Shown: one piece after another, positions 3,642 through 46,021 of the stretch
How the letters are laid out: the number at the start of each line of letters is the position of its first letter
How positions within the stretch are numbered: the stretch's first letter is position 1
Origin: Vulcanimicrobiota bacterium
GTDB lineage: Bacteria; Vulcanimicrobiota; Xenobia; Xenobiales; JADMJV01
DNA length: 64,000 nt
Assembly: GCA_050250895.1 (NCBI GenBank)
Contig: JBFWNU010000002.1
Span: 855,659 to 919,658, forward strand
Direction: 5' to 3'
The notes under the pieces: generated by a model
The model's database searches: none
Told to the model about the DNA's origin: nothing
The model's input: only the letters and a program-made list of their open reading frames with translations
Position numbers and translations under genes: made by a program

Positions 3642-3669
3642 GCCGGGCCTTTTGCCCTCGCCCGTCGCC

Positions 3670-4257: not shown

Positions 4258-4337
4258 CCTGCCTCCTTCGTTTCACACTTTCAGAAAACTTTCACGGCTC
4301 GGACCTAAGCTGGCCAAAACACGAGAAAACCATCATG

Positions 4338-4653
4338 GCGATATCAACATCGCGCTCAACCAGGCCTTCGGTGGCTTCAACGTCCGCCCCACCAATCAGA
4401 CCCAGCGGGTCGGAACCTTCACCGTCACCGCCGGAGTGCGCTCGGATGGCGTCAAGCCAGCCGAGGTGCTGGTCTTCGAAAAAGGCGAGTTTCGCAATCG
4501 CAATCGCGGCTTCGGCTTTGGCAACTTCCAGTTCGACACGACCCTACCCAACGCTCGGGTGGGTAAGACCTATCAGGCCCAGATCTTCTGGGGACGCGCG
4601 ATGTCTTCATGGACGAGGCCAACGAGCGCGTCTTCATCAGCACCCTGTTTTGA
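4338..4653 (+). pseudogene. Probable gene remnant (no good start, internal frameshift)
   Basis: Coding-like frame GDINIALNQAFGG...YQAQIFWGR continues after a shift near 4597 as RDVFMDEANERVFISTLF*. Confidence 0.35.
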
Positions 4654-18434: not shown

Positions 18435-19361
18435 TCAGCGAAACGAGCTGAAAAAGATCCAGATCTCGTCCGCCGCATTGAGGTCGCGACTGACTTCTCC
18501 TACCATCGAGACCGGCAGATACTGCGGGCCCGAGGGCCATGTGTGGCCGCCGTTCTTGATCTCGTAGAGCACGACCGGAGCTCCTTTGGATGAAGGCCAA
18601 CTGGTGCGGGTGACCGAGGTGTTATCGCCGGGAGCGTCGATGGCCCGCACCGAATCGGGTGACTGCGAACAGCCGTTGCGACGGCGGAAGATGGCCAGGG
18701 TTTTCTCGGTCGAGAGCACGGCGTCGCGATCTCGGCCCAAGATGCGAATCATGCCGCCCTGATAGGGCACCAGCGGGTCCCCCGTGCCGTTGAAGACGGC
18801 CAGCCCCACCGGGGGGCCGTCGGTGCAGTCGTCTTCGAGATAGCCAGGCAAAGGCATGGTGACCGGTGCCACCGCGCGAAAGACGCCCGGCAGCTTGCCC
18901 ACCAGGAAGTAGCAGGCCTGTCCACCGCGCGAGATGCCAGTGGCAAAGATCCGACGCGAGTCGATAGGAGCCACACTCTGGACTTGTTCGAGCACCGTCT
19001 TGAAATAGGCCAGGTCATCGTTGGGATTCTCGATGCTGGCCGAGATTTCGCCCTCGCCGAAGTTCCAGAGTTTCTCGCCCCCGGCCTCGGGATAGACCAC
19101 GTAGAAACCGTGCTGGTCAGCCAGCTGGTTGAAGCGATGCCCGGTCATGCGGACCATCTGGCGAGCCGTGCCCGAGCCTCCATGGATGACAAAAACTAGA
19201 GGTCGTGCCCCTTCCAGGGCGGCGGTCTGTTTCGGGGTGTAGAGCAGGTAGCGCCGGGTCACCCCAGCCTGGTCGAAGGTCTTTTCGTGCAGCCCCGGCC
19301 GGGCCGCCGCCAGCCCGCTGGCCAGTAGCAGCCAGGCCAGCAACCATCTACCAGATGGCAT
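18435..19361 (-). CDS. Secreted alpha/beta-hydrolase, PHB depolymerase/LpqC-like esterase
   Basis: Signal peptide; IHGG, GISRGG nucleophile elbow, GTGDPLVP, GGHTWP. Confidence 0.88.
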   Translation of the reverse strand: MPSGRWLLAWLLLASGLAAARPGLHEKTFDQAGVTRRYLLYTPKQTAALEGARPLVFVIHGGSGTARQMVRMTGHRFNQLADQHGFYVVYPEAGGEKLWNFGEGEISASIENPNDDLAYFKTVLEQVQSVAPIDSRRIFATGISRGGQACYFLVGKLPGVFRAVAPVTMPLPGYLEDDCTDGPPVGLAVFNGTGDPLVPYQGGMIRILGRDRDAVLSTEKTLAIFRRRNGCSQSPDSVRAIDAPGDNTSVTRTSWPSSKGAPVVLYEIKNGGHTWPSGPQYLPVSMVGEVSRDLNAADEIWIFFSSFR

Positions 19362-21357
19362 TGCGGCGCTCGCCCTCGCGTAGCATCGGGCTGCCGGGCG
19401 GGATCTTGAAGGCCTGCTCGAATTCGGGCAGGTTCGACAGCGGTCCGTTGACCCGATAGCGAGGGTGGGGATGGGGGTCGGTGTTGACCTGCAGGCGCTC
19501 GTATTCGGGGCGCATGTTCATAGCCCAGACGCGGGCGTAGGCCAGGAAGAATCGCTGCTCGGGATTGAACTTGCCGCTGCGATCGGGAGGGTTTTTCTGC
19601 CAGGCCTTCTGCAGGGCGCGATAGGCCAGCTTGAGTCCGCCCAGGTCGGCGATGCTCTCGCCCACCACCAGTTTGCCGTTGATGTGCAGGTTATCGGCCA
19701 CGGTGTATTCGTCGAACTGCTTGACGATGCGTTCGGCCAGACCTTCGAAGCGCAACTTGTCGTCGTCGGTCCACCAGTTTTCCAGGTTGCCTTTGGCGTC
19801 GTACTTGGAGCCCTGGTCGTCAAAACCGTGAGTTAACTCATGGCCGATGACCATGCCCAGGGCCCCGTAGTTAAGGGCGTCGTCGTAGTCGTTCGAGAAG
19901 AAGGGAGGCTGGAGAATGCCGGCCGGGAACACGATCTCGTTAGAGGAGGGGTCGTAGTAGGCGTTGACCGTCTGGGGGGTCATATACCACTCGTTGGGGT
20001 CGACCGGTTTGCCGATCTTGGCCAGGTCGCGAGCCACCTCGAAGGCCTGGGCGGCCAGAGCGTTCTCGGCATAGGCCCCGGGCTTGATGGTCAGGCTGGA
20101 ATAGTCGCGCCACTGATCGGGGTAGCCGATCTTCTGGCGGATGGCCTGGAGCTTCTCGACCGCCTTGAGGCGGGTAGCCGGGCTCATCCACTCGAGGGTT
20201 TCGAGGTCTTCGCGTAGGGCCGCCCGCAGGTTGGCGATCAGCTCTTCGACGCGGACTTTGGCTTCGGGGGGGAACTTGCGGGCCACGAACTTTTTGCCCA
20301 AAGCCATGCCGATGGCGCCATCGGTGGCTGCCACCACCCGCTTCCAGCGCGGTTGCATCTTCTCGGCGCCGGTCAGGGCCTTGCCGTAGAAGTTGAAGGT
20401 CGCTGTCTCGAACGGCTCGGCCAGGCTGGGCGCTTGACTGTGGACCAGGTGCCAGCGCAGGTAGGTCTTATGGGTCTCGATGGGAGTCTGGGTCAGGGCT
20501 GCGTCGAGCGCCTTGAAGAAGTCGGGGGTGGCCACGTTGAGCCACTCGATTTCGACGCCCATCCGTTGAAAATAGGTGGCCCAGTCGAAATGGGGGCTGA
20601 CTGCCTTCAGTTCGGCCAGGGTCTTGGGGTTGTAGGTCGCTTCGGGGTCGCGCAGGGCCACCCGTGTCATCGAGTCTTTGGCCAGTTTGCTTTCGAAATC
20701 ATAGACATAAGAGCTGTCGTGGGCCGAGCCCTGGGCCGAAGGACCCATCAGATTGAACATAGTGACCAGGTGGCCCTGATAACCCGAGCGGATCTTCCGG
20801 GACGCCTCATCGTCGCGAAAGTAGTAATCGCGATCAGGCAGTCCCAGCCCGCCTTGCGAAAGTTGGCCGATGACTTTCGAGCTGTCTTTCGAGTCTTGCA
20901 CGGCGCCGAAGTTGAAATAAACCCATACGCCCATCGAGTGGAGGCGGGCGACCTCGGCTTGCAGACTCGCCTGGTCGGTGATGGCCTCGATGCGAGCCAA
21001 CTCGTCGGCCAGCGGCTTGAGGCCGGCGGCGTTGATGGCTTTGGTGTCCATCCCCGAGGCGTAGAAATCGGCCAGTTTCTGCTCTTCTGAGCCCGGGGCG
21101 GGATTTTGCCTTCCGAGTTCTTCGAGAATCTCGCGACAGACCGCTTGATTGTTCTCGGCCAGCACGTTGAAAGTGCCCCAGCGGGGGCGGTCCGAGGGAA
21201 TCGGATTGCGCTTCATCCAGCCGCCGTTGGCGTACAGATAGAAATTCTCGGCCGGCGACACGGTAGTGTCCATGTCGGCCGGGTCGAGCCCGGTGGGTGG
21301 GGCTGCCCAGGCGGGCAGACAGCAAAGAATGGCCAGGGCCAGGAACAGTCGTTTCAT
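19348..21357 (-). CDS. M13 family zinc metalloendopeptidase (PepO/neprilysin-like), secreted
   Basis: Signal peptide; VNAYY, GHELTHGFDD, GESIADLGG, DPHP...RVN. Confidence 0.96.
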   Translation of the reverse strand: MKRLFLALAILCCLPAWAAPPTGLDPADMDTTVSPAENFYLYANGGWMKRNPIPSDRPRWGTFNVLAENNQAVCREILEELGRQNPAPGSEEQKLADFYASGMDTKAINAAGLKPLADELARIEAITDQASLQAEVARLHSMGVWVYFNFGAVQDSKDSSKVIGQLSQGGLGLPDRDYYFRDDEASRKIRSGYQGHLVTMFNLMGPSAQGSAHDSSYVYDFESKLAKDSMTRVALRDPEATYNPKTLAELKAVSPHFDWATYFQRMGVEIEWLNVATPDFFKALDAALTQTPIETHKTYLRWHLVHSQAPSLAEPFETATFNFYGKALTGAEKMQPRWKRVVAATDGAIGMALGKKFVARKFPPEAKVRVEELIANLRAALREDLETLEWMSPATRLKAVEKLQAIRQKIGYPDQWRDYSSLTIKPGAYAENALAAQAFEVARDLAKIGKPVDPNEWYMTPQTVNAYYDPSSNEIVFPAGILQPPFFSNDYDDALNYGALGMVIGHELTHGFDDQGSKYDAKGNLENWWTDDDKLRFEGLAERIVKQFDEYTVADNLHINGKLVVGESIADLGGLKLAYRALQKAWQKNPPDRSGKFNPEQRFFLAYARVWAMNMRPEYERLQVNTDPHPHPRYRVNGPLSNLPEFEQAFKIPPGSPMLREGERRNAIW

Positions 21358-21404: not shown

Positions 21405-21602
21405 CTAGTCAGACCATCCCAGAGGCTGGCCTCGATGGCCCGGCCGTTCGACAGCCACGGCCGTGGGGGGCTGTGGCGCCGGGGCCCGTCGCGACAACAA
21501 GACGGTCAGGGGCGGGGCGGCGGGTGGACCGCTGACCAGCGGTGGCGAGGCCAGGGCTAGCAGGGTCAACAAGGTAAGAAGCCAGGCGGCGCGCTGTTTC
21601 AT
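21405..21602 (-). CDS. Small hypothetical protein with hydrophobic N-terminus
   Basis: ATGA overlap with the upstream gene's stop; signal-like segment. Confidence 0.4.
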   Translation of the reverse strand: MKQRAAWLLTLLTLLALASPPLVSGPPAAPPLTVLLSRRAPAPQPPTAVAVERPGHRGQPLGWSD

Positions 21603-22903
21603 GGAGTGAGGTCTCCGGCCAGCACGCCATGCGGGGTGCCGATGAGGAACTGGCCACTGTCGTTGAGGGCCAGCACTTCGTCGGGTCGCAGCACGCGATT
21701 ACCCGCTTTGAGCACGAAAGCGCTGCCGTCGTTGACGTTACCGGTGACCACCCCCGACGAGGTGCCGATTAGGAAGGTTCCGTCTTCGCGCAGCACGGCG
21801 CTGATGTTCTGGATGTGGCCGTCGCCGGGCATGTCGTCATAGCCGTCTTCGTCCACGCCATTGTTGGCATAAAGCTTGTGACCGTCGAGCTTGACCAGGG
21901 TCACCTCGTCACGCGAGGCGTCACCGCGCACCACCCCTGAGAGAGTGCCGGCCACGAACTGGCCGTTCTCGTTGAGGTCCATTCCTTCGTCGGCTCGCAC
22001 CGTCTTGCCGTCAAGCTTCACCAGGCTGGTCTGGCCACCCACCTCGCCGCGAATCAGGCCGGGGCCGGTGCCGGCGATGAACTGGCCTTGATTGTTGAGC
22101 TGTACTTCATCGTCAGCCCAGACCTTGCGGCCATCAAGTTGAACCAGCCTGGTCCCACCGTCGATATGGCCCTCGACCAGGCCGCGGGTGGTGCCAGCCA
22201 CGAACTGGCCGCGGTCGTTCAAGTCCAGACCATCGTCGACCTTGAGCGTCTTGCCGTCGAGGGTCACCAGGTGGGCCTCGCCCTGGGCCACCTGGCCGGT
22301 GACCAGACCCTGCAGCGCGCCCGCCAGGAAATGGCCCGAATCGTTGACGTCAAAGCCCTCGTCGGCGAAGGCCGTCCGCCCGTCGAGCTTGAGAAAGCGG
22401 GCCTGGCCGGTAGTGAGGTCGCCCACCACGATGCCGCGGTTGGTGCCCACGATGAACTGGCCCTTCTCGTTGATGGCCGAGCCGCCGTCCGAGCGAAGGT
22501 CCTTGCCCTCGACCCGCAACAGATGCTGGCTGCCGGCCTGGTTGAGGTTGCCGACCACGATGCCCTGAATGGTGCCGACCACGAACTGGCCTTGGGAGTT
22601 GACGGCCCCTCCTTCATTGGCGAACAGCTTGTGCCCGTCAAGCTCGAGAAAGTGCCCGGTGGCCGTGCCTTCGGGAGCTTCCGGCAGGGCGATCTGGATC
22701 GAGGGCTGGTTGCTGGCGGTGCACCCGGCCACTGAAGTCACCGCTACCAGCCCCAGCAACGCCGCTCCCCACAACGACTTGGGGGAATGGGCGGGGGTCG
22801 GGTCCTGGGTGAAGTTGTCCAGCGAGGGAGCTTCTTCGGTTGGGACGGTGGCGGAGCGAACTCCGGGAGGGGCGGCATGGCGGACGGAACTCAACTTCTG
22901 CAT
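21599..22903 (-). CDS. Repeat protein, probable 8-bladed beta-propeller
   Basis: Eight ~41-aa repeats LxLDGxxxxADEGxxxNxxGQFxxGTxxGxxxG after a hydrophobic segment ending VAGC. Confidence 0.75.
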   Translation of the reverse strand: MQKLSSVRHAAPPGVRSATVPTEEAPSLDNFTQDPTPAHSPKSLWGAALLGLVAVTSVAGCTASNQPSIQIALPEAPEGTATGHFLELDGHKLFANEGGAVNSQGQFVVGTIQGIVVGNLNQAGSQHLLRVEGKDLRSDGGSAINEKGQFIVGTNRGIVVGDLTTGQARFLKLDGRTAFADEGFDVNDSGHFLAGALQGLVTGQVAQGEAHLVTLDGKTLKVDDGLDLNDRGQFVAGTTRGLVEGHIDGGTRLVQLDGRKVWADDEVQLNNQGQFIAGTGPGLIRGEVGGQTSLVKLDGKTVRADEGMDLNENGQFVAGTLSGVVRGDASRDEVTLVKLDGHKLYANNGVDEDGYDDMPGDGHIQNISAVLREDGTFLIGTSSGVVTGNVNDGSAFVLKAGNRVLRPDEVLALNDSGQFLIGTPHGVLAGDLTP

Positions 22904-23056
22904 GTCCCCAGTGTAACGTCTTGATGTTTCTAAACTGTTTCCAAAATGTATCCGGGTTTCTATTCCTTCACGTGCAACAACTTCCGTCTCTAAGTGGACA
23001 CTTTTCGCTGTCGATTTCTACCGTCTACCGACTTCCGTCTGATCCTACCGTCTGAT

Positions 23057-23971
23057 CTACCACGCGTGCCCGGCCATCAGCATCGAGGCCAGGGCTTCGC
23101 TGATCGGTTGTCCGGTTCGGTTTTCATACCAGCCGTAGGCCGGGGAGGGGTTGACCTCAAAGCAGCACACCTCGCCCTCGGGAGTGAAGCGAAGGTCGAG
23201 CCCGGCCAACGGCAACTCGAGGCGTCGGGCCAGGTTCTGGCAGCGTTCAGCCAGCTCGGCGGGAAGGTCCCAGGCCACGATCTCGGACTCTTTGTCATAG
23301 CGATAATCACTCTTCTGCGACTCGATCCGCGAGGCGAAGACACCGTGGTTGCCGACCACATGGACCCGCACGTCAAAGCCCGGCACATAGCTCTGCAGCT
23401 GCAAAGGGCAGTATTGCAGTTGCTCGAGTCGATCCAGATCTTGTTCTTGCAGCTTCTGCACGATCGAGCGCTGGTAGCTGATCGATTTGAAGATGACCTC
23501 GCCCTCTTGCTCTTCGTAAAAGAAGCGAGCCTGCTGGTCGCGGTTGGTCACCACCGTGGCGGGCACAGCCAGGCCCGCTTCGGCGATGAGGCGAATCTGA
23601 TAAGGCTTGCTGGCGTTGGAACTGGCCGCCCGCGGCCGGTTGACCACCAGACCCGGAAAGTTGTTGAGCCAGCCCACCAGGGCCGACTGGCACTGATGGT
23701 TGACGTGCACGACCTCCTCGTCGCTGTACTCTTCATAGACTTGAAAGTTCGAGAAGCCGACGCGATGATAGATAGCCCGAATGCGGCTGCACGCGATCCG
23801 CTCGCCACCCAGCAGAAAGGCATCCTGTTCAGGCGTCGAGCCGAAAGCGAGACGAATCTCGCCGGGGATGTCGTGCACCGAAAAGAACATCGATTCTGCC
23901 CCGGCCGCCGACAAGGCCTCGGCGATGCCGACACCCATCGGGTCTTCGGGCGAAGAGATGACCAGGATCAC
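23057..23971 (-). CDS. ATP-grasp ligase, RimK/MvdC-MvdD (graspetide synthetase)-like
   Basis: GTG start overlapping the upstream TGA; NRP..SNASKPYQ...GLAVPATVVTN, VIFKS, LQSYVPGFDVRVHVVG, GLDL...FEVNPSP. Confidence 0.88.
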   Translation of the reverse strand: MILVISSPEDPMGVGIAEALSAAGAESMFFSVHDIPGEIRLAFGSTPEQDAFLLGGERIACSRIRAIYHRVGFSNFQVYEEYSDEEVVHVNHQCQSALVGWLNNFPGLVVNRPRAASSNASKPYQIRLIAEAGLAVPATVVTNRDQQARFFYEEQEGEVIFKSISYQRSIVQKLQEQDLDRLEQLQYCPLQLQSYVPGFDVRVHVVGNHGVFASRIESQKSDYRYDKESEIVAWDLPAELAERCQNLARRLELPLAGLDLRFTPEGEVCCFEVNPSPAYGWYENRTGQPISEALASMLMAGHAW

Positions 23972-24837
23972 GGCTTGCCCTCCAACAACTCGGCCACGGC
24001 CGAGCGCACCGTCTCGTGAGATAGGGCCGCCAGGCTGGGAAAGCTCTGCAGCGAGCCCACCTGCCACTGCCCGTCGTGACCCCGTCGCAGGTTGAATTCG
24101 CCCAGATTCAGCTCGAGACTGCGGGCTAGGTCAAGACAGGCCTCTTGCAGTTGCGCGGGTGGCTCGGCTTCGCCTACGAACAAGCCTTCTTCACCCACCA
24201 CACACAGGGCGCCGGCCCCCGGCCACGGCTCGGCCTCGAAATGAATCGGGGCCAGCGGCAACCGCTCGAGCAGCTCGAGTTGGTCCTCTTCCATGGCCGT
24301 GAAGTGGCTGCCGGGGTCGCCCACCTGGCGATAGATGATGCGCCCCTGGTGGTGCCGATGAAAGTCGCGAGCCGCCTCAGGATCCGAGGTCACCAGCATC
24401 TCGGGCACCGGCAACCCGGCCGCGCTGACCGTGCGCATGGTCGACCAGCGCGTTCCCCAGGTATCAGGCCGGCGAAAAAAGTTGGCCATCAGGGCCGTGT
24501 CCGACAGTTGGTCGAACATGGCGATGAGGGTGGCCCACTCTTCGAGCTGAATGTAACCGCGATCTTGCTCTGAAAAGCCCTCCAGGCTTTCGGGGGGCAC
24601 AAAGAAATGGTCCATGCAAACCGCCGACACTGTCGAGAAAGGCAGCACGCCCCCATCGGGCAGATAGACCAGGCTCGTGCCCGGGTCGGGCCCAAGATAG
24701 AGCGAGCATTCCGAGAAAAACTGCTCTTGAGTAAAGAACGCCACCGGTCGCCGTTGGCGATTGAGCAGCGTCTCGTAAAGAATGGCCAGACCCGGATGTT
24801 GAAGGGTCCCGTAGAACAGGACGCACGATTCTTGCAT
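23968..24837 (-). CDS. Degenerate ATP-grasp-fold protein
   Basis: AGLPVPEMLVTSDPEAARDF...GRIIY aligns by eye with the neighbouring ligase, but the conserved Lys residues and ExN motif are absent. Confidence 0.7.
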   Translation of the reverse strand: MQESCVLFYGTLQHPGLAILYETLLNRQRRPVAFFTQEQFFSECSLYLGPDPGTSLVYLPDGGVLPFSTVSAVCMDHFFVPPESLEGFSEQDRGYIQLEEWATLIAMFDQLSDTALMANFFRRPDTWGTRWSTMRTVSAAGLPVPEMLVTSDPEAARDFHRHHQGRIIYRQVGDPGSHFTAMEEDQLELLERLPLAPIHFEAEPWPGAGALCVVGEEGLFVGEAEPPAQLQEACLDLARSLELNLGEFNLRRGHDGQWQVGSLQSFPSLAALSHETVRSAVAELLEGKP

Positions 24838-24844
24838 TCAGAGG

Positions 24845-25780
24845 CTAGGCGAAGAAGCGGTTCGAGAGCGTCGTGACCGTCGGCTGCACGCGATTGAACA
24901 CTTCCAGGTCCTTTTCGCCGAGCTTCTCGTTTTCGATTTTGAAGGACTCTTTGGCCTCGAGGGATTTCTCGATATTGAGTTTCTCGGGATTCTTGTCGCC
25001 GAGCTTTTCATTCTCGGCTTTGAAGCTCTGCTTCTCGGCCTGCTTGTCGAGCAACTTATCGTTCTGGATAGCCTTCTCGTTGTATGACTTGTCACCGAGC
25101 TTCTCGTTTTCGGCCTTGAAGCTCTGCTTTTCGGCCTGCTTGTCGAGCAACTTATCGTTTTGGATAGCCTTTTCGTTGTATGACTTGTCACCGAGCTTTT
25201 CGTTTTCGGCCTTGAAGGTCTGCTTCTCGGCCTGCTTCTCGAGCAACTTATCGTTTTGGATAGCCTTTTCGTTGTATGACTTGTCACCGAGCTTTTCGTT
25301 TTCGGCCTTGAAGGTCTGCTTCTCGGCCTGTTTGTCACCCAGCTTCTCGTTGGTGACGGCCTTTTCATTGTAGGACTTGTCACCGAGTTTCTCGTTCTCG
25401 GCTTTGAAGGTCTGCTTTTCGATGCTCTGCTTTTCGATGGGCCCTTTTTCGAAGGACTGCTTATCGGCTTGCTTCTCGCCGAGCTTTTCGTTCTCGGCTT
25501 TGAACGAGAGCTTCTCGATATTCTTCTCTTGTCCCAATTTCTCGGGAGCGAACTTCTCGTGGGTGCCCTTCTCGGGTTGGCCCTTCTCGTAACCGAGCTT
25601 TTCGCTGGCGAATTTCTCAGGCTGCTTCTCGCTGCCGTGCTTGCAGAACGACTGCTGGAAGCCCGGCCCCTCGGTCGGCTTTCCGGCGGGTGCGGGGGCC
25701 GGTCCGCCGAGCGAGCGGATTGGGCCCTGGTGGGTGGTTAGCGCGGGACGAAACTGTGACGAGATGAACGGTTCTTTCAA
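24845..25780 (-). CDS. Glu/Asp-Lys-rich tandem-repeat protein; candidate RiPP (graspetide) precursor
   Basis: GGAGGAG RBS 8 nt before TTG 25780; N-terminal KEPFISSQF; seven FK(A/I)ENEKLG units at mostly 32-aa period; 7 nt from the ATP-grasp genes. Confidence 0.7.
   Translation of the reverse strand: MKEPFISSQFRPALTTHQGPIRSLGGPAPAPAGKPTEGPGFQQSFCKHGSEKQPEKFASEKLGYEKGQPEKGTHEKFAPEKLGQEKNIEKLSFKAENEKLGEKQADKQSFEKGPIEKQSIEKQTFKAENEKLGDKSYNEKAVTNEKLGDKQAEKQTFKAENEKLGDKSYNEKAIQNDKLLEKQAEKQTFKAENEKLGDKSYNEKAIQNDKLLDKQAEKQSFKAENEKLGDKSYNEKAIQNDKLLDKQAEKQSFKAENEKLGDKNPEKLNIEKSLEAKESFKIENEKLGEKDLEVFNRVQPTVTTLSNRFFA
24915..25505 (-). repeat. Coding tandem repeat, 96-bp (32-codon) period
   Basis: Near-identical copies of FKAENEKLGDKSYNEKAIQNDKLLDKQAEKQ(S/T), differing largely at synonymous positions. 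Confidence 0.9.
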
Positions 25781-25849
25781 AGTCGAAACTCCTCCGAATA
25801 CCAAATTGTATCACGACCCCACCCGGTTTGGTCTAGAGGTTGGCCAAAA

Positions 25850-26227
25850 TCAGTGGCGCACCCCGCTAAGGTAGGTCTCGGCCAGCACTCGCTGGTCCTG
25901 GCCGCGCACCTGCCACGAAACCACGACCTGGGCGCTTTTCAACAGGCGGGGATCTCGTCCGGCCAGCTCAGCGATCTCTTGCCGGATGGCAAAACGCTGC
26001 CCTTCCACCGTGATGTCCTCGGTGTAGATGCCGACCTCGAGTTGCTCGAAGCTGGTGTGCTGCAGTCTGGCCAACCGGTCCTGGGCCAGGTTATTGGCCA
26101 CCAGGCGCGCTTCGGTCCGAGCAATCGCAAGCAGCGAGGTGGGGAAGAGGTTGAGCACGAGAATGCCGATCACAAAGGCCACGGCCGCGGCGAAGACCAC
26201 TTCTGCCAGGCTCAATCCCCGTCGCAT
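25850..26227 (-). CDS. Prepilin-type N-terminal cleavage/methylation protein (minor pilin)
   Basis: RRG|LSLAEVV class III signal peptide. Confidence 0.8.
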   Translation of the reverse strand: MRRGLSLAEVVFAAAVAFVIGILVLNLFPTSLLAIARTEARLVANNLAQDRLARLQHTSFEQLEVGIYTEDITVEGQRFAIRQEIAELAGRDPRLLKSAQVVVSWQVRGQDQRVLAETYLSGVRH

Positions 26228-26277
26228 CCCGCATGCTTCCGCGAGGACCGCGCTGCAACCTGCGAGAAAGCCTGGTA

Positions 26278-26919
26278 ATGGACCCCGGGAAAAGGCGCTT
26301 CAAGACCGGCGTGACGCTGATCGAGCTCATTATCTACGCCGGCTTGAGCTTGCTGTTGCTGGGTCTGCTGTTTTATCTCTTGTGGCCCAGCGCCCGGGCC
26401 TCGGGGGTCGCCACCGCCAAGGTGCGCCTTCACCAGATGGCCACCAACGTCTTGACCAAGCTGGGCCGCGACCTGGCTACCAGCAATGCCTCGGCCGTTT
26501 CTTTGCTCGATTCGGCCGCGGCCCCCCAGCCCAATGGCCTGGCTCTGGTGCAAGCTCGGGGCCTGACGGCCAGTGGCCAGACCAGCTGGCAGACCGAAGC
26601 CATCTGCTATCTGTTCTTGCCGGAGCAGGGCCGCGTGGTGCGCCAACTTTGCCCCCCCGAGCCGCCCTCGGTCGTTTTTCTGGCCTCGCGGCCGGCGCTG
26701 CTCTCGGCCTCTGACCTGCTGGCGGTGGCCCAAAACTCCAACCAGACCCGCCGCACGTTGGCCCAGCAGGTTACCCGCTTCGAGGTCTTTCACGAGGGCG
26801 ACACCCGAGCCAGGGTGGTCTCGCCCCTGCGGGTGCGCATTCGCCTCGAAGCCGATGTGCCCGGCCGCACCGCCCCGGAGGTTTTCGAACTGGAGCGAAC
26901 CTTTGCGCTGCGCGATTAA
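26278..26919 (+). CDS. Prepilin-type N-terminal cleavage/methylation protein
   Basis: KTG|VTLIELIIY followed by a hydrophobic helix. Confidence 0.8.
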   Translation: MDPGKRRFKTGVTLIELIIYAGLSLLLLGLLFYLLWPSARASGVATAKVRLHQMATNVLTKLGRDLATSNASAVSLLDSAAAPQPNGLALVQARGLTASGQTSWQTEAICYLFLPEQGRVVRQLCPPEPPSVVFLASRPALLSASDLLAVAQNSNQTRRTLAQQVTRFEVFHEGDTRARVVSPLRVRIRLEADVPGRTAPEVFELERTFALRD

Positions 26920-28468
26920 GATTGTCTTGCTGATGGGACTGCTCTGGGCGGGGGCCACCGCCGAGGTTCGCGACCTGATGATCGTGGCTGTCGACACCCA
27001 GGGCAAGAACTTGCGCGCCGAGCTCTATCTCAAGGCCGAGGGCTTCGAGTTGCTCGGTCCCAGCGGGCGGGCCTATGCGGTCGAGATGGACCCGTTCACT
27101 CTCAAGAATGGACAGGTTCGCCTGCGGGTGGGCCTGATCCATCCAGACTACATCGGTCTCTATGAAGAGATCGACTTTCGTCGCGGGGTGCCCGTCAAGC
27201 TCAAGATGGTGCCGCGCATTCGCCGTTTCGAGTTGCAGACCGATCCCCCCGATGCCCGGGTTCGCTCCCAACAGGGCTTTCTCGAGCGGCAGCCGGATGG
27301 CTCGCTGGAGCTCGACCCGGCCGCTTACCTTCCCCTGGCCGGGCGGGCCGGTGGCGAGCCTGTCTATCAACGCGCCCCCGCCGAGTTGACCCTCGAGGCC
27401 GACGGCTACGAACCGACCAGCCTGATCATCGAGCCCGAGCAGTGGGCCACCGGTCAGCTGGGCTCGGTGGCCCTACCCGCCGCCCGCGGTCTGGGGCCCT
27501 TCCTGACCCGCCTGCGTCACTCTCCTGGCCCGCTGCTGCTGGTGTTGACCTTGCTTGGGCTGGGCGCTCTCAAAGCTCGTCAGCTGGCCGCCAGGGCGCG
27601 TCTGGCCGAGCAACTCGAGAGCCTGCGCGCCGATGGTAGCGATCCCCTGGCCGGAGCCGAACTCGGTGGCTATCGGCTGGCCGAGCAGTTGGGCCAGGGG
27701 GGCGCGGCTGCCGTCTATCTAGGCTATCCGGCCGCCAGCCTTGACCTGAGCAAGCCCGTGGCCGTCAAGGTCGTGCACCGCCAGTTGGCCCAGGATCCCG
27801 ATTTTCTCCAGCGCTTCTATCGCGAGGTCGAGGTGAGCGGTTCGCTGGTCCACGCCAACATCGTCGAACTCAAAGACTATGGCAACCAGGACGGGCAACT
27901 CTATCTGGTGTTGGAATACCTCAAAGGTACTTCCCTGCGGGATAAGGTTCGGGCCGGCCTGCCCCTCGCCCAGGTGATGGACTACCTTCGTCCGGTGGCC
28001 AAAGCCCTGATTTACGCCCACCAGCAAGGCGTGACCCATCGCGACCTCAAGCCCGAGAACATCATGGTGACCGAGCACGGTCTCAAAGTGATGGATTTCG
28101 GCTTTGCCAAGAAGCACAACGCCTCGACCATTACGGCCACCGGATTCATCTTCGGCACCCCGGCCTATCTGCCACCCGAGCAGGCCCGAGGCGAGGTCTG
28201 TGCGGCCACCGACCAGTATGCCTTCGGAGTGCTGGCCTTCGAGCTGTTCACCGGTCGCTTGCCCTTTGAAGCCGAAGAACCGTTGGCTCTGGTGATGCAG
28301 CACATGAGCGACCCGCCGCCCAGCCCGCGCGACTTTCGCCCCGACCTCTCGATCGAAGTCGAGGCCGTCGTGCTCAAACTGCTGGCCAAAGACCCCGAAG
28401 ACCGTTATCCCTCGATGAGCCAGGCCTGGCAGGCGCTCGAAGAGGCTAGTGGGCTTTCCACAGCCTGA
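26903..28468 (+). CDS. Membrane Ser/Thr protein kinase with N-terminal extracytoplasmic (PEGA-like) region
   Basis: Signal-like N-terminus, TM helix, GQGGAAAVY, VAVK, HRDLKPEN, DFG, GTPAYLPPE; start estimated. Confidence 0.9.
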   Translation: MRCAIKIVLLMGLLWAGATAEVRDLMIVAVDTQGKNLRAELYLKAEGFELLGPSGRAYAVEMDPFTLKNGQVRLRVGLIHPDYIGLYEEIDFRRGVPVKLKMVPRIRRFELQTDPPDARVRSQQGFLERQPDGSLELDPAAYLPLAGRAGGEPVYQRAPAELTLEADGYEPTSLIIEPEQWATGQLGSVALPAARGLGPFLTRLRHSPGPLLLVLTLLGLGALKARQLAARARLAEQLESLRADGSDPLAGAELGGYRLAEQLGQGGAAAVYLGYPAASLDLSKPVAVKVVHRQLAQDPDFLQRFYREVEVSGSLVHANIVELKDYGNQDGQLYLVLEYLKGTSLRDKVRAGLPLAQVMDYLRPVAKALIYAHQQGVTHRDLKPENIMVTEHGLKVMDFGFAKKHNASTITATGFIFGTPAYLPPEQARGEVCAATDQYAFGVLAFELFTGRLPFEAEEPLALVMQHMSDPPPSPRDFRPDLSIEVEAVVLKLLAKDPEDRYPSMSQAWQALEEASGLSTA

Positions 28469-36397: not shown

Positions 36398-36668
36398 GTG
36401 CATAGTGTATCATAGTTATATTGATGCGCTAAGTGATATTTGGACTAGGGCCAGTCCCCCGGTCCGCTCGTCGACAAACCCGATTCCAGGCCGCCGCCAA
36501 AGACATTCCGGGCCAGCTTCAGCCTTTCAGAGTTTTTTCCGGGGGCGCGAATAGACTCTTCCACAGGTGAAAGAAGCGCGGGCCATGCGTTTTCAGGATC
36601 CTTTAATTCGATTCAGATAAATGTTTCAAACGAGAGTGCCACAACTCGTTAACTGTAGGAGGACTTGG

Positions 36669-39605
36669 ATGGATACCATCAACGCTCACGGCAACAACTG
36701 GAATATCAGAGGAACCTTCCCGAAAGCGGCGCCGGCGGCTTCTAAAGCCGTTTCCACGGTTCCGGGTGATCAGGTGTTCTTGAACTCGAACACCCACGCG
36801 GCCGCCTTGAGCATCCCCACCACCTTGCCCGTGACCAGCAAAGCTGCTGTAGTGGCGGCCCCGGTCGCACCCGCCGGTCCTCCGGTCAACACGGCTGCCC
36901 CCATCACGATGGTGGTAGAAGGCCCGACGGCGCCAACCAATAGCGCCGCCATGTCGGCCCCGGCCCCGGTGCTGCGCGCCGCGGCCACCCAGTTTGATGC
37001 CGTCGAGATCATCGATGCCGAGAGCGATGACGATTCGGTCTGGATTCCCTCCGCCTCCGCCACTCTGGTGAACACCGCCAACACCCTCGAGAATCTGAGC
37101 AAGCTGGCCGCCGCGGTCAACTCGAAAGAGTTCACCCTGCTCACCGGCGAAACCGGCGCCGGTAAGACCGCGCTGGTCAAATACCTGGCCCACATGACCC
37201 GCAACCGTCTGCGTCAGGTCAACATGCACGACCAGACCGACGAGGTCGAACTCTTCGGCGGTTATAAGCCGGCTCCCGATGGTGGCTTCGTGTGGCGCGA
37301 CGGCACCATTACCTCGGCCGTCCGCAACGGTCACTGGCTGCTGCTCGACGAGATCAACCTGGCCGACCAGGCGGTGCTCGAGCGCATGAACCCGCTGCTC
37401 GACGGTGAGGGCCACATCGTGCTCACCGAGAAAGAAGACAAAGAGCGGGTCAAAGTTCATGGTCGCACCCGCGTCTTCGCCACCGAGAACCCGGCCAGCT
37501 ACGCCGGCCGTAAAGAGCTGTCGGCGGCGATGTTCGACCGCTTCCAGCGCAAGATTTACATGCGGCGTCTGCCCGACACCGAACTCAACGAAGTGCTCAA
37601 GAAGGACTTCTCGGCCTCCCTGATCGTGGGCAAACTGGGCGAAAGCTTCCCTGACCTCGACAAAGAAACCAAGTCGGTTCTGCGCGGCAACGTGCTCAAC
37701 AGCCCCGAAGCCGTCACCCCCACCTCGGTGGTGGCCCTCGAAGCCGCTTTCGGTAACAGTGACAAGAACGCTCTCAAAGAGCTGCACCGCCAGTTCGCCG
37801 CCAATCCGAGCCTGGATGCGATGCCCATCGCTCCTAAAGCCAAACAGGTGCTGGAAGCCTTCCAGGGTATCCTGGCCAAGCCGCCGGCTCCCGTCATTAA
37901 CGACAAAGTCTTGTTGCAGATGTCGATTCTGCACAACGAGATGGTCAAAGCCTCCGAAGGCCGCGTAGTCGGTAAGAAGGGCGGTCCTTACCCATTCACC
38001 TTGCGCGACCTGCTCAAGCTGGCCAAGCGCATCAAACACTACAGCGAGGTGAGCCCCGAGCTCAACCAGTTCCAACTGGCCTGGCAGCAGGCCCGCGACA
38101 TCTATCGCGAGCGTTTCATGGAAGAGGCCGACCAGCAGACCGTCGAGCACTTCTTCCAGCTTTCGTTTGGTGACCCCAGGGTCAACCGTGACGGCGCTCC
38201 GCCCGAAACCAACGCCTCCATCACGATGGAGAGAATTGGCAACAAGATTCGTATCGGCGATACCAGCCTCGAGATCAATCCCCACGGCGGCGATTATGTC
38301 CCCGATGCCAGCGCCAAGCTGATTTCTACCCCCGGTACGGTCAAGAAGCTGACCCGTCTGGCCCGCGCTGCTGCCCTCGACGAGCCGGTGCTGCTGGTGG
38401 GACCGACGGCTGCTGGTAAGACCTCACTGGTTCGCTGGCTGGCCCACGAGACCAATAACGAGTTCCGCCGCGTCAACCTGAGTAACCACACCGATACCAG
38501 CGAGCTGATCGGCGGCTACTTCCCGGCTGTCGAAGTCGACTTCGACAAAGCCAACACGGCCATCAAAGCCATCGAAGGCAACGCCGATTTGAGCAAGCGC
38601 TTCCAGGCCACCCTGGACAAGATGGGCGACGAGGTCAAGAAAGGCGTCGAGATTCTCAAGAGCAATCCGAGCCTCGAGGGCGACGCTGCCAAAGAAGCTC
38701 AGAAGACGGTCCGCGACGCCCTCGGCCGTATCCTCGGCGACGACCAGTTGCGGGTAGCCTTCGAAGACCTCGAAGACACGGGCGCCGAGTTGCGCAACGG
38801 TCTGGAAGGTTCGTTCCGCACCGTGCCCGGTAAATTCGAGTGGCGCGACGGTATCATCATCGAAGCCATGAAGAAGGGTCAATGGATCGTCCTCGACGAG
38901 ATCAACCTGGCCGAGCCGGCTGTGCTCGAGCGCCTCAACTCGCTGCTCGACAGCGACCGCGCCGTGGTGCTCACCGAGCACCTGGGCGAGCGCATTAAAG
39001 CCGACTCGCGTTTCCGAGTCTTTGCCACCATGAACCCGGCTACCAACGACTACGGCGGACGTAAAGAACTCTCGCCGGCGATGCGCAACCGCTTTACCGA
39101 GCAGTGGTTCCCAGACATCAACGACCGCTCCGAGATTCTCCATATCGCCAATTCCTGGGTGGAAGACTTCAAGAGCGACGCTCAAGAGTATCTCAAAGGC
39201 TTCGATGCCAACACCGCCAGTCGGGAAGACAAGCTCAAAGCCCTGTCCGCTCAAGCCTTCTTGAAAGAAGACACCAGCCGGCTGGCCGAAGCCGTTACCG
39301 ACTTCCAGATCACCATCCGGGCCAAGGCCAAGCGGCAGAACGGGCAGACTCCCGAGTTGCCCACCGCCAAAAAGGACGGTTATCACTACACCTTGCGAGG
39401 AATGCGGGCCTGGCTGAAGTATATCAAGAATAACGTGGGACGCCCGATGCAGAACCCCGACGACCCGAAAGACCGTTCGCTGCGCAAAGACCTGAAAACG
39501 GTTTTCAACGAAGGCGTCGAAGGTTACTACGTGGACGGCCTATCGCGAGCTGAAGATCAGCAGACCGTGAAGTCCCTGGGCGAAAGCCTGGCCAACCGAC
39601 TGTAG
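36669..39605 (+). CDS. Tandem AAA+ ATPase (two MoxR/dynein-related AAA_5 modules), midasin-like
   Basis: AGGAGGA RBS; GETGAGKT and GPTAAGKT Walker A; LLLDEINLA and IVLDEINLA Walker B; FATENP/FATMNP sensor 1; arginine fingers FDRF/RNRF. Confidence 0.9.
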   Translation: MDTINAHGNNWNIRGTFPKAAPAASKAVSTVPGDQVFLNSNTHAAALSIPTTLPVTSKAAVVAAPVAPAGPPVNTAAPITMVVEGPTAPTNSAAMSAPAPVLRAAATQFDAVEIIDAESDDDSVWIPSASATLVNTANTLENLSKLAAAVNSKEFTLLTGETGAGKTALVKYLAHMTRNRLRQVNMHDQTDEVELFGGYKPAPDGGFVWRDGTITSAVRNGHWLLLDEINLADQAVLERMNPLLDGEGHIVLTEKEDKERVKVHGRTRVFATENPASYAGRKELSAAMFDRFQRKIYMRRLPDTELNEVLKKDFSASLIVGKLGESFPDLDKETKSVLRGNVLNSPEAVTPTSVVALEAAFGNSDKNALKELHRQFAANPSLDAMPIAPKAKQVLEAFQGILAKPPAPVINDKVLLQMSILHNEMVKASEGRVVGKKGGPYPFTLRDLLKLAKRIKHYSEVSPELNQFQLAWQQARDIYRERFMEEADQQTVEHFFQLSFGDPRVNRDGAPPETNASITMERIGNKIRIGDTSLEINPHGGDYVPDASAKLISTPGTVKKLTRLARAAALDEPVLLVGPTAAGKTSLVRWLAHETNNEFRRVNLSNHTDTSELIGGYFPAVEVDFDKANTAIKAIEGNADLSKRFQATLDKMGDEVKKGVEILKSNPSLEGDAAKEAQKTVRDALGRILGDDQLRVAFEDLEDTGAELRNGLEGSFRTVPGKFEWRDGIIIEAMKKGQWIVLDEINLAEPAVLERLNSLLDSDRAVVLTEHLGERIKADSRFRVFATMNPATNDYGGRKELSPAMRNRFTEQWFPDINDRSEILHIANSWVEDFKSDAQEYLKGFDANTASREDKLKALSAQAFLKEDTSRLAEAVTDFQITIRAKAKRQNGQTPELPTAKKDGYHYTLRGMRAWLKYIKNNVGRPMQNPDDPKDRSLRKDLKTVFNEGVEGYYVDGLSRAEDQQTVKSLGESLANRL

Positions 39606-39621
39606 GGCCTTGGAGGCATCG

Positions 39622-42600
39622 ATGAATAACATCTCCGCGAATACACCCCAACCGCCCCAGCGGCGGGCGGCCATCGGCTCGGTCACGGCCAACCTCAACA
39701 AATCGGGCGCGACCAGCCCGGGCCAGACCGACACCGTTCACCTGGCCGGTAGCTGGTGGAACAAGATCTTCGGCAAGGAAGAGCAACCGGCTCAGCCGGC
39801 CCCTCCGGCCCAGAACAATACCCCGGCTCCCGCCGGTCCGGCCCAACCGGCTCCGGCTCAGCCGGCACCTGCTCCCATTCCCACCCCGCCCAAGGGCGGC
39901 GCCAAGCCGACCGACGCCGAGGTGACCAAGCAGGTGCGCGACCGCTTGCAGCAGATCGAGGCCGTGGCCAAGACCATCGGCGGCGACATGGGGACCACCG
40001 TGACCGCCGGCGACGAGTGGAAGCACACCTTCCATCCCGACGGCTCGCACGAGATCACCATCCGCCAGCAAGACCTGGTGGACAAGAGCGAAAACTACGC
40101 CATCGGCAAGGTGCTGGGCGAGGCTGCCAAAGCTCGCTACTCGCACTGGTCGGTGGACCAGCAGCACGCCCAGGACGAAGGCTACATGTACCTGCAGAAC
40201 TCGGTGGAGACGGCTCGCACCGGCGAGATCCTCTCCAGCCGCCTGCCAGGTGCTCCCACCTTCATGGACGATGTCTACGAGCAAGACCTCAAGCACCCCA
40301 CCGAGTGGTATCAAGAGCGCATCGCCGACAAGTTGATGCGCGAGGCCGAAGGCAAGCTCACCCGTGAACAGGCCGAAGCAGTGGCCGCCCAGGTCGGTTC
40401 TAAAGTTCCCAAGCACGTCCAATACGGCAACGGCGTCATGCACAACTGGTTCTATGGCGAGAAAGATCCCGCCATGGATGCCGATGTGGCTAACGCTTTC
40501 GACCGCACCAAGGGTGATATCGAGCAAGCCTACAAGATCAAGCGTTCGGCCCTCGAGCGCGACCTGACCCCGGTCGAGATCAAAGAGCAGGCCGAAGAGT
40601 CCTCGAAGATCGTGCGGGAGAAGCTGTGGCCCGAGTACCAACGTCTGGTCGAACAAGACATCGCCGATTTGTCCAAGGCCCTCCAGGGCGAGCAGAGCCC
40701 CGAGCAGCAGGCCAACCAGAATCAGCAGTCGGGTCAGTCGGGTCAATCCGGCCAGTCCGGGCAGTCGGGCGAGATGAGCCCCGAGCAGATGGCCAAACAG
40801 CAGCAGATGCAGCAGCAGAAGCAGCAGGACGCCAATCAGAATCTTTCCCAGGCTGGCCAGCAGATGCAAAAAGCCGGCCAGAAAATGCAGCAGAGCCAAC
40901 AGCAGAACGGCCAGCAGGCCGGTCAGCAGATGGAGCAGGCGGGCCAGCAGATGCAGCAGGCCGGCCAGCAGCAGGGCAAACCTGACGCCAACTCTCTGCA
41001 GCAGGCCGCTCAAAATATGGAGCAGGCCGCTAACCAGATGCAGCAGATGGGTCAGCAGCAACAGCAGATGACCCCCGAGCAGATGCAGCAGATGGCCGAT
41101 CAGATGAAGGCCCAGCAGGGGATGCAGAATGCCGCCCAGCAGGCCATGCAGCAGAACCCCGGCGCCGTCGAGCAGGCCGCCAATCAGGCTCTCGACCAGA
41201 TGAAGAATAATCCTGACATGGCTCGCTCGATGCAGCAGTCGATGACTCAGGAAATGCAAGATGCGATGCGCAACAACCCCGAGATGGTCGAGCGCGCCAT
41301 GGAACAGCTCCAGCAGAACCCCGAGCTGATGAAGAAGGCCATGGAGCAGATGCAGCAGATGCAGCAGGATAATCCTGAGATGCAAAAGCAGATGCAAGAG
41401 CTCCAGCAGCAGATGCAAAAGGACCCGGCCAAGGCCCAGGAGCAGATGCAGAAAATGGCCGAGCAGATGCAGCAGAACGCTCAGATGAAAGAGCAGATGC
41501 AGCAGATGCAAAACCAGATGGCCAACGATCCGCAGAAGGCCGCCGAGCAGATGCAGCAGCTGGCCGACCAGATGCAGCAGAATCCCGCCATGAAGGACCA
41601 GATGCAAAAGCTCGCCGAGCAGATGCAGAAGGACCCTCAGGCGGCTCAGCAGCAGATGCAACAGCTGCAAGAGCAGATGCAGCAGAACCCGCAGATGGCC
41701 GAGCAGATGCAAAAGCTGGCCGAGCAGATGCAGAAAGATCCGCAGGCCGCCCAGCAGCAGATGCAGCAGATGCAGGATCAGATGCAGCAGAACGCTCAGA
41801 CCAAAGAGCAGATGCAGCAGCTGCAAGAGCAGATGCAAAAAGATCCGGCCAAGGCTCAAGAAGCCATGCAAGAGCTCGGCAAGCAGATGGAGCAGAACCC
41901 CGAGCTCAAGAAGCAGATGCAGCAAGCCATGTCCGAGGCTCTCCAGAAAGATCCTCAGGCTGCCCAGCAGGCCGCCGAGAAGATGATGGACGACCCGGCC
42001 ATGCAGCAAGCCATGCAGAACGCCATGAAGAACAATCCGGCGATGCAGCAGGCGATGCAGGATGCTTTAAAAGACAACAAGCAACTGCAAGACGCGATGA
42101 GCCAGCAGATGCAGAACAACCCCGACCTGATGAAACAGGCCGCGGAGCAGATGCAGAAGGATCCCGCCGCCGCCCAGCAGGCCATGGACCAGCTCAAGGA
42201 CCAGATGACCCCCGAGCAGCAGCAGGCCATGCAGCAGGCGATGGAACAGGCCAAGCAAGACCCGGCCAAAGCCGCCGAGGCGATGCAGCAGGCCATGGAG
42301 CAGAACCCCGAGCTCAAAGAGAAGATGCAGCAGCAGATGCAGCAGCAGATGCAGCAGCAGCTCAAAGACAATCCCGAGCTCGCCAAGCAGGCCATGGAGC
42401 AGCTCAAAGACAACCCGGCCATGCAGAAGGCGATGCAAGAAGCTCTGCAGGACGAGCTCAAGAAGAATCCCGAGGCCCTCAAGAAAGCCGCCGAAGAACT
42501 CGAGAAGAACCCCGAGGCCAAGAAAGCCGCCGAGGAGGCTCTCGAAAAGCAGCTCAAAGAGAATGGTCAGCCCGAAGAAGCCAAGCAGGGCAAAGCCGGC

Positions 42601-45945: not shown

Positions 45946-46021
45946 CGGCGAGCCCGGGCCACGGCCGGCCCACGACCGAAGCGAAAGAAGACTGAACGGC
46001 GCCAACAGAGAAGAGGCGGCC

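Follow-up and report, generated by a model that had tools for sequence, protein, structure and literature searches.

Closest described systems

Corallotide, a product of ∼22 kDa, is still classed as a graspetide in its published description: the TIGR04187 enzyme CorB acts on five KxxxD motifs in CorA (∼22 kDa), where it closes Lys(i)-Asp(i+4) lactams, and it depends on, and is activated by, a partner protein (PMC13097080). In the myxomiditides, MyxF is described as forming tandem Lys(i)-Glu(i+3) lactams processively at (KxxE)n, and MyxD2 as acting only with partner ATP-grasps (PMC12848669). Here we analyze a three-gene locus in a stretch of 64,000 nucleotides (nt) from a Vulcanimicrobiota bacterium (assembly GCA_050250895.1, contig JBFWNU010000002.1, positions 855,659 to 919,658), which as a whole is called the window below. 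On its minus strand lie a gene for a 311-amino-acid (aa) repeat protein that begins MKEPFISSQF (24845–25780, TTG start), then grB (23968–24837, 289 aa, ATG start) and grA (23057–23971, 304 aa, GTG start). Most likely the three genes form an operon through which side chains of a single large disordered protein are enzymatically cross-linked. We favor, with moderate confidence, the reading that grA makes many small Lys-Glu/Asp lactams in the repeat protein, as a giant variant of graspetide biosynthesis. What is most likely new here is a giant multi-repeat protein as the predicted target of graspetide-type chemistry, together with a dead paralogue as the putative partner of the ligase.

An earlier note on this DNA, made from the sequence alone, had reported three minus-strand genes with a 7-nt gap and a 4-nt overlap, and we found all of them where it had placed them. 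The repeat-protein gene and grB are separated by 7 nt (CCTCTGA), the grB stop and the grA start share the 4 nt GTGA, and the trio is translationally coupled.

By description, corallotide resembles this locus in its large precursor, its repeated small Lys-acid lactams and its partner-dependent TIGR04187-type ligase (PMC13097080). The two differ in scale and in partner. Corallotide has five KxxxD motifs whereas the window protein has about 45 units of Glu or Asp followed by Lys ([ED]K), and the corallotide partner is a 2-oxoglutarate/Fe(II) oxygenase that hydroxylates the product whereas here the partner is a dead ATP-grasp protein. Graspetide group 15 is described as confined to Corallococcus (PMC13097080), and its gene context was not matched here, as the scanned neighbors of 434 and 125 aa contain neither an oxygenase nor a beta-lactamase domain. 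The myxomiditides share with our reading of the locus the tandem small Lys-Glu lactams and the cooperating ATP-grasp paralogues (PMC12848669). Unlike the window protein, they are short peptides of the microviridin class with a TxKxPSD core, which is absent here, and MyxD2 is still catalytic while grB lacks the Mg ligands and the DYRY loop of active enzymes.

The microviridin system MdnA/MdnB/MdnC likewise sets two paralogous ATP-grasps beside a precursor with a hydrophobic leader motif, and one of its links is a Lys-Glu lactam; however, both of its enzymes are active, and its core, TxKxPSDx(D/E)(D/E), is absent from the window protein. In plesiocin biosynthesis one ligase, PsnB, serves several repeated cores after docking on the leader, and we know of no dead paralogue partner of PsnB. 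The PsnB/PsnA2 system (PDB 7drm-7drp) gives the best sequence match of grA and the best fold match of grB, but the plesiocin core, recorded in the earlier note as TTxxxxEE, has 0 matches in the window protein.

A truncated inactive ATP-grasp beside an active one is the mark of branch 8 in the classification of Makarova et al. 2022, where branches 7 and 8 are described as having no predicted precursor and as linked to peptidases from several unrelated families (PMC8939145). An inactive paralogue beside an active one is also present here, with grB dead in 19 of 19 sequences. As far as that description goes, branch 8 fits the distant relatives of grA treated below, which have a shortened dead partner and peptidase neighbors. 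The window clade is unlike branch 8 in that its partner is full length (289 aa) and its neighbor is an EK-repeat protein and not a peptidase.

Two marks of a graspetide locus are present: a ligase of the MvdC/MvdD/PsnB lineage, grA, is encoded beside its putative substrate, and the EK spacing provides a core in which donor (Asp/Glu) and acceptor (Lys) residues are patterned. Another, a released leaderless peptide product, is absent: the substrate is 311 aa long and neither a protease nor an exporter is conserved. Carter et al. 2026 describe 19 new graspetide groups, among them group 32 with neighboring proteases from diverse families and groups 27 and 42 from candidate phyla (PMC13097080), and the window's family may already figure among them. 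The graspetide and ATP-grasp literature within our scope, to which the supplementary group tables of Carter et al. do not belong, describes no EK-repeat substrate, no dead full-length partner and no tag of the kind reported below, and our literature search returned no graspetide work on Eremiobacterota.

The ligase grA and its partner grB

In full-length alignments grA scored 150.1 bits with TIGR04187 (SAV_5884-type, curated cut-off 350), 116.2 bits with TIGR04185 (MvdC, cut-off 425) and 107.4 bits with TIGR04184 (MvdD, cut-off 475). These maturase models score 2.5–3.5 times higher than rimK_fam (42.8 bits, cut-off 143.4). The RimK/LysX alpha-L-glutamate ligases share the ATP-grasp fold with grA, but its scores lie far below the cut-offs of those families: 16 bits were obtained for the S6-glutamate ligase (cut-off 331) and a marginal E of 0.067 for LysX_arch, and the Pfam RimK domain matched weakly at 24.1 bits. 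The PDB ranking runs the same way, with 7 chains matched, the top 6 being graspetide synthetases (PsnB, AMdnB, MdnB, MdnC, CdnC and 9bou, which is PruB). PsnB is the closest (E 1.8e-28, residues 2–300) and RimK the weakest (E 0.0095). All residues invariant among 32 aligned relatives are retained in grA, namely K122, K162, R168, Q191/Q193, R202/H204, D222-Y-R224, D259, E272 and N274. By these residues and rankings grA is predicted to be an intact graspetide-lineage ligase in a clade of its own, although the sequence scores do not tell amide-forming from ester-forming enzymes.

The earlier note had proposed a graspetide-type locus, and both the maturase models and the PDB ranking place the third gene with the graspetide ligases and not with RimK/LysX/GshB enzymes. 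It had also said that a grouping with RimK/LysX/GshB enzymes whose neighbors lack repeat genes would speak against its proposal. We find the opposite: the neighborhoods of grA relatives hold EK-repeat genes. Near grA itself we saw no S6 or LysW-type partner, and the neighboring genes encode repeat proteins.

To characterize grB we compared the active sites of 137 active sequences (20 grA of the family and 117 database homologues of 280–345 aa) with those of 19 grB. The two window proteins share 25% identity over 243 residues (BLASTP, E 6e-18). In all 19 grB the K122 position is Arg and the DYRY loop is deleted, and the positions equivalent to D259, E272 and N274 of grA hold other residues, so that the Mg ligands are lost; the K162 position is Lys in 10 and Arg in 9. 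Because the Mg ligands and the DYRY loop are gone, grB is predicted to be a catalytically dead paralogue and not a second ligase. Both genes thus encode the ATP-grasp fold that the earlier note had assigned to them, while only grA has the catalytic residues.

An AlphaFold2 model of grB from a 21-sequence alignment (predicted local distance difference test (pLDDT) 88.6, predicted template modeling score 0.86) was searched with Foldseek. PsnB was the best match with a template modeling (TM) score of 0.78, followed by MdnC, AMdnB, CdnC and PruB, and the TM scores with RimK/LysX structures were clearly lower, about 0.58–0.61. Some invariant residues are particular to grB (D92, Y95, E99, N119, R130 and G141), and their retention suggests that grB is under selection for a non-catalytic role. 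We infer that grB is a non-catalytic partner, which would dock the substrate or activate grA and may do both. Co-folding of grA and grB with substrate residues 1–45 gave a score of 0.02 against a mark of 0.32, which speaks neither for nor against binding. Against 1.84 billion representatives, a grB profile reached E ≤ 1e-3 with 6452 proteins, and 44 of the matches lie at E ≤ 1e-30. Full-length-type matches (at least 186 bits) numbered 29, and among the 150 matches listed there are many short-type proteins of ∼240–255 aa that match in two stretches.

The repeat protein

Lys, Glu and Asp make up 37% of the repeat protein (56 K, 45 E and 13 D). It contains 45 [ED]K dipeptides, compared with 10.5 ± 2.7 in 500 composition-preserving shuffles, all within an EK/DK repeat region spanning residues 51–290 (24911–25630, minus strand). 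The 44 intervals between them measure 4 residues in 19 cases, 5 in 14, 6 in 4, 9 in 6 and 14 in 1. With 33 of 44 intervals at 4 or 5 residues and the dipeptide count far above the shuffled level, the recurrence of an E/D-K dipeptide every 4–5 residues described in the earlier note is borne out. A Glu or Asp stands directly before 45 of the 56 Lys and at +3 or +4 of 44 of them (K..[ED] and K...[ED] occur 22 times each); in two relatives the latter holds for 45 of 45 Lys (locus L031) and 78 of 79 (L024). Inside the region lies a 96-nt (32-aa) tandem repeat (24992–25421; 4.5 copies at 90% identity, Tandem Repeats Finder), which is young.

The sequence has 0 matches to each of T.K.PSD, PSD and TT....EE, so that the core fits neither TxKxPSD nor TTxxxxEE, in line with the contrast drawn in the earlier note, which had written the first core as TxKYPSD. 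Such a Lys-dominated core is nevertheless less unprecedented than was then assumed, because lactams at KxxxD (PMC13097080) and KxxE (PMC12848669) have been described.

The repeat protein belongs to no family in Pfam or NCBIfam, and a Ribosomal_L27 match (21.2 and 16.8 bits, no stretch passing) was rejected as compositional. Its Atlas model has a mean pLDDT of 0.42, which predicts disorder. Atlas feature matches were set aside as uninformative: the best, at 0.80, lies under the bar of 0.9 and concerns other repeat proteins, and the structural rows name no family. A whole-protein search found 1 homologue (P0121) among 8000 scored candidates, which is no sign of rarity because low-complexity words crowd the candidate list. 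As read by eye, the N-terminus, which starts with the tag described below, shows no signal peptide.

PsnB is an ester-forming enzyme. It is also the best PDB match of grA, and the window protein contains 9% Ser+Thr, so that plesiocin-like omega-esters from Ser/Thr to Glu/Asp were considered in place of amides. In most family members Ser and Thr are scarce (3–6%) and non-periodic, whereas Lys is periodic, and we give the ester reading hardly any credence.

Both ends of the protein are non-repetitive. Residues 1–12, MKEPFISSQFRP (25745–25780, minus strand), form an N-terminal tag with the family consensus M-x-D-L-F-I-x3-[F/L]-R-P, of which M1, F5, I6, R11 and P12 are shared without exception by the 15 family members compared. 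The last four residues, R-F-F-A (24848–24859, minus strand), carry the end motif of the family; across 17 sequences its Arg never varies and each Phe is retained in at least 90%, and 0–4 additional residues trail the RFF in relatives. The earlier note had read PFISSQF as the recognition motif. A conserved N-terminal motif is indeed present, but it is FIxxx[F/L]RP and not PFxxxF, and the second motif, the C-terminal R-F-F, had been missed. A profile of the tag matched this gene alone in the window's own 9.5-Mb genome (4.1e-13; next matches at E ≥ 0.47). The conservation fits a recognition tag and putative docking site, and we take the FIxxxFRP tag and the C-terminal RFF as likely docking sites.

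A conserved C-terminal end could also point to a different chemistry, in which grA adds a free amine or amino acid to Glu/Asp side chains or to the C-terminus. Decoration of this kind is RimK- or tubulin-glutamylase-like, and the tubulin glutamylases are ATP-grasp-type enzymes; the matches of grA to Pfam RimK and rimK_fam given above lean the same way. Decoration would not, however, require the Lys that is co-conserved with the acids at fixed spacing, and the free C-terminus is not fixed because 0–4 residues follow RFF. Given also that the maturase models outscore rimK_fam and that RimK is the weakest PDB match, we regard decoration as improbable.

Conservation of the trio within the phylum

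We searched 61 genomes of the phylum, including the window's own, for grA relatives at E ≤ 1e-30 and found them in 17. Counted by family without the own genome, they occur in 6 of 15 genomes of family f1, 5 of 5 of f2, 2 of 3 of f4, 1 of 1 of f5 and 2 of 2 of f12, and in none of the 19 small genomes of f3. The neighborhoods of 20 loci from 16 other genomes were then compared. In 19 of them grB adjoins grA upstream, and the exception, L043 (4892–5835, genome G005), has a broken grA spread over two frames and lacks both grB and the repeat gene.

Sixteen of the 20 loci contain an EK-rich gene whose product has the N-terminal tag, the RFF end or both. The contigs end early in L033 and L036 and L043 is degraded, which leaves 17 loci with DNA upstream of grB, and the co-occurrence that the earlier note had proposed to look for in homologue neighborhoods is therefore seen in 16 of 17. 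In the remaining one, L035, the place upstream of grB is taken by a divergent open reading frame (ORF; 3503–4651, plus strand), which the contig end truncates. Its product lacks the N-terminal tag and has repeats of the (G)(R/H/Q)EKG type with a Pro-rich tail. The EK-repeat gene lies on the opposite strand in L031, and in L028 (genome G016) it is split by an in-frame stop at 7177/7178. The defects in L028 and L043 could be signs of decay and could also be assembly errors.

Substrates of the family are 188–561 aa long. Pooled over 15 members, the [ED]K units are spaced 4 or 5 residues apart in 648 of 717 cases, and the residues between vary by lineage, for example GPV/QNV/FAP units in L024 versus different units in the window. 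The family thus keeps an acid-Lys spacing and not a fold.

ORF clustering of the related loci found no fourth gene common beyond close relatives. Three neighbors in the window were rejected as operon members on this basis: the M13 peptidase gene (19348–21357) is absent beside the trio in the 20 related loci, and neither the gene for a 434-aa repeat lipoprotein (21599–22903) nor a pseudopilin-like gene (25850–26227) recurs there.

Relatives in other phyla

A scan of one genome per species gave 344 confirmed loci, and the best 80 were analyzed; 15 of these repeat loci of the phylum and 65 are distant. The distant loci encode proteins with 36–52% identity to grA over the best aligned segment (36–47% for alignments of 200 or more query residues). 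Among their source phyla are Actinomycetota (many Streptomyces), Acidobacteriota, Chloroflexota, Pseudomonadota, Myxococcota, Gemmatimonadota, Nitrospirota and Cyanobacteriota, and culturable relatives occur in Streptomyces, Archangium (locus L066, minus strand) and Roseobacteraceae. Three contigs of the scan whose records are labeled as uncultured Burkholderiales bacterium (L045, L047 and L056) are contigs of genomes G022, G024 and G004 in the window's order or family. These genomes group with relatives labeled Xenobia or Vulcanimicrobiota, and the Burkholderiales labels are apparently mistaken.

Of the 65 distant loci, 50 have a same-strand ORF that ends about 0.7–1 kb upstream of grA and whose product bears a conserved element at its C-terminus, with the consensus RLxxLExxVxxLxHFIxxxLRPDLxxGALxxExD and with F, I, R and P invariant in 50 of 50. 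Profile-profile comparison aligned the N-terminal tag (LFIxxefRP) with this element (hFIxxelRPDL) over 14 columns with a probability of 90.6% and an E of 1.3e-6. At least 15 Lys are found in the 150 residues preceding the element in 36 of the 50 ORFs, as KE/KD/EK runs that also occur in high-GC actinomycetes. When the 50 tagged ORFs were read from stop to stop, Pfam recognized Peptidase_S8 in 13, DUF6519 in 5, Peptidase_M6 in 4 and an Ig-like ASH-type domain in 1, and most others had none. Searched against 5.8 billion proteins, the C-terminal tag profile had at least 24 matches, among them Streptomyces proteins of ∼328 aa; those with a source name are called hypothetical protein save for one automatic Joint Genome Institute name, and no Pfam domain covers the tag.

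A grB-like ORF lies between the tagged gene and grA in 60 of the 65 distant loci, and 2 of the 5 exceptions are at contig edges. These ORFs usually match only profile positions ∼5–155 and ∼210–290 and most lack positions ∼160–210, which makes them a shortened form. A separate clade (L076, L086 and L089, with record labels Cyanobacteriota, Melainabacteria and Gammaproteobacteria) has full-length grB-like partners and EK-rich genes with PFI- or LFI-type N-termini, and two of the three proteins end in NPFF(I/V)R at the C-terminus. In a quick ligase tree, Shimodaira–Hasegawa-like approximate likelihood ratio (SH-aLRT) values were 88 for the window clade (20 rows), 98 and 97 for two clades with the C-terminal tag and 100 for the cyanobacterial-type clade. 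The tree also holds a Nitrospiraceae pair, and the groups sit around an unresolved base, for which reason we make no claim on the ancestral tag position.

Across the wider family the tag seems to sit on whole proteins, some of them proteases, and to mark them for cross-linking, and by its likeness in description the wide clade with the C-terminal tag may correspond to branch 8 of Makarova et al. The large tagged neighbors are obvious candidate substrates because the tag adjoins a Lys/Glu-rich stretch. If this is true, they would supply candidate substrates for the precursor-less, peptidase-linked ATP-grasp branches, and natural substrates would be recognized through a tag at either end; work from 2026, “Repositioning the Leader Peptide in Graspetide Biosynthesis”, concerns such a change of position by engineering (PMC13003496). 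The tag on the large neighbors of a clade held to be precursor-less appears to be the point most worth testing.

These relatives also bear on whether the EK protein is a substrate at all. It could be a polyampholyte with a structural, regulatory or chaperone-like role that accompanies the ligase pair while the real substrate lies elsewhere, and substrates outside the locus are what Makarova et al. proposed for branches 7 and 8 (PMC8939145). In that report, though, precursor candidates were confined to at most 150 aa (PMC8939145), so that its screen would miss long substrates. The conservation of the tag at the extreme N-terminus, its homology to the tag of the adjacent gene in distant relatives, its single occurrence in the 9.5-Mb genome beside the ligase, and the translational coupling of the trio all argue against this reading, which we consider very unlikely.

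A broader interpretation, which we put forward tentatively and think less probable than not, is a widespread system of protein-level modification. A portable tag of ∼12–35 residues (hFIxxxLRPDLxxGAL) would mark whole proteins (S8 and M6 peptidases, DUF6519 proteins) for the ligase and its dead partner, and the adjoining Lys/Glu segment would be cross-linked. In the window clade the tag would have moved to the N-terminus, the globular domain would have been dropped and the K/E segment would have grown to 200–500 residues. The product would be a cured poly-isopeptide protein, either a ladder of 45–100 rings or a covalent network. If so, it would be a new kind of bacterial protein material and not a peptide natural product.

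The attachment of K/E segments to whole enzymes (13 S8 and 4 M6 of the 50) would suit anchoring, and raises the alternative that the amides between Lys and Glu/Asp form between molecules, so that the EK protein is cured to a covalent polymer or matrix or is coupled to other proteins. The length of the substrates (188–561 aa), their predicted disorder (pLDDT 0.42 in the window protein), the nearly equimolar Lys and acids (56 K versus 58 E+D) and the lack of a conserved protease or exporter are all compatible with curing. On the other hand, the characterized graspetide ligases named in two reports are described as acting within one chain (PMC13097080, PMC12848669), the strict 4–5 residue spacing (648 of 717) is needed by a local ring but not by random links, and the window protein has no signal peptide by eye. 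We judge curing between molecules to be unlikely, though with a real chance of being right.

Proposed reaction and points against it

For the favored reading, in which grA forms lactams within the repeat protein, we propose that grA, probably complexed with grB, would dock on the FIxxxFRP tag and perhaps also on the RFF end. It would then proceed along the repeats, using ATP to phosphorylate Glu/Asp carboxylates to acyl phosphates, each of which the epsilon-amine of a Lys 3–4 residues upstream would capture to give a small lactam. Pairing of Lys(i) with Glu/Asp(i+3 or i+4) would be natural because the [E/D]K units recur every 4–5 residues. Up to about 45 small macrolactam rings could form in series. 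This many rings would remove about 90 charges and all trypsin sites and convert a polyampholyte coil into a chain of rings, giving a polycyclic, largely charge-neutralized and trypsin-resistant protein. Since the operon comes with no conserved protease or exporter, we expect a large protein product and not a small peptide for export. If true, no other known ribosomal product would come near its degree of cross-linking: a single ligase with a pseudoenzyme partner would close tens of isopeptide rings in one 30–60 kDa chain, and the three genes would provide a simple system that writes lactam staples into a genetically programmable repeat.

Several observations weigh against this proposal. The scores of grA fall under the curated cut-offs of all three maturase models (150.1 of 350, 116.2 of 425 and 107.4 of 475 bits). 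Many graspetide clusters differ from the trio, beside which neither a leader protease nor an exporter is conserved. In the ligase tree the base is unresolved, and the SH-aLRT support of 88 for the window clade comes from a quick search. The order of the charged pair is K-E and not E-K in the phylum relatives L040 and L041 and in most relatives with the C-terminal tag, and this mixed order means that no single ring register holds for the whole clade. The predicted bond type and ring register come from the spacing and from analogy with described lactams, amides being likelier than esters. Finally, a polyampholyte that is 37% charged could act without any cross-link.

Operon signals and neighboring genes

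Upstream of the operon the earlier note had named a GGAGGAG ribosome-binding site and an extended -10-like element. Both sequences are present on the minus strand, GGAGGAG at 25789–25795, 8 nt 5' of the TTG start, and TGATACAAT at 25805–25813, 5' of the operon, as a putative promoter. A sigma-70 consensus scan of 22700–26300 gave no promoter call on the minus strand, so that a promoter role of the second element is a guess. The repeat-protein gene could be read in a longer form from a TTG at 25804, but orthologues start with Met right at the conserved tag, which favors the start at 25780; homologues of grA likewise begin at MILV. A sequencing-run search with 23057–25804 returned a single DNA run (0.05 of words) and 0 RNA runs among those listed.

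Downstream of grA by 153 nt lies the gene at 21599–22903 (minus strand) for the 434-aa protein, which starts like a lipoprotein (…VAGC), contains about ten repeats of ∼40 aa (…GQFV.GT..G.V.G…) and has no Pfam or NCBIfam match. It is followed by the gene for the M13 (neprilysin-type) peptidase (19348–21357, minus strand), whose start resembles a signal peptide; its presence is suggestive given the peptidase link of the wider clade. The operon is flanked on the other side by genes for two small proteins with prepilin-type hydrophobic N-termini (25850–26227, minus strand, and 26233–26919, plus strand), the first with weak matches to GspI and “Verru_Chthon cassette protein B”, and a Ser/Thr-kinase-like ORF occupies 26573–28468.

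Farther along the window, 36621–39605 (plus strand) encodes a 994-aa protein with two AAA-type ATPase regions (GvpN/CobS-like matches). The gene at 39610–44217 (plus strand) encodes a 1535-aa protein, the bulk of which is low-complexity sequence rich in Gln, Met, Glu and Lys and whose C-terminal part is cobaltochelatase-like (VWA-type); this gene accounts for an AT skew of 0.43–0.49 at 40–44 kb. A GC-rich repeat at 44675–46100 (plus strand) is open in three forward frames, each of which yields repeated units such as SGRVCSEFSREHAPAFRGST, and it has the appearance of tandemly repeated DNA, not of a gene.

Elsewhere in the same genome, contig C13 holds a second, canonical-looking graspetide locus (L002, about 31.6–35.5 kb) that is much more microviridin-like, with ORFs at locus positions 1486–2478 (plus strand) and 3211–3855 (minus strand). 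Its ATP-grasp scores 390 bits on TIGR04184 (MvdD), under the cut-off of 475, and a nearby 214-aa ORF has at least 5 repeats ending in YPSDSD, a microviridin-like multi-core pattern.

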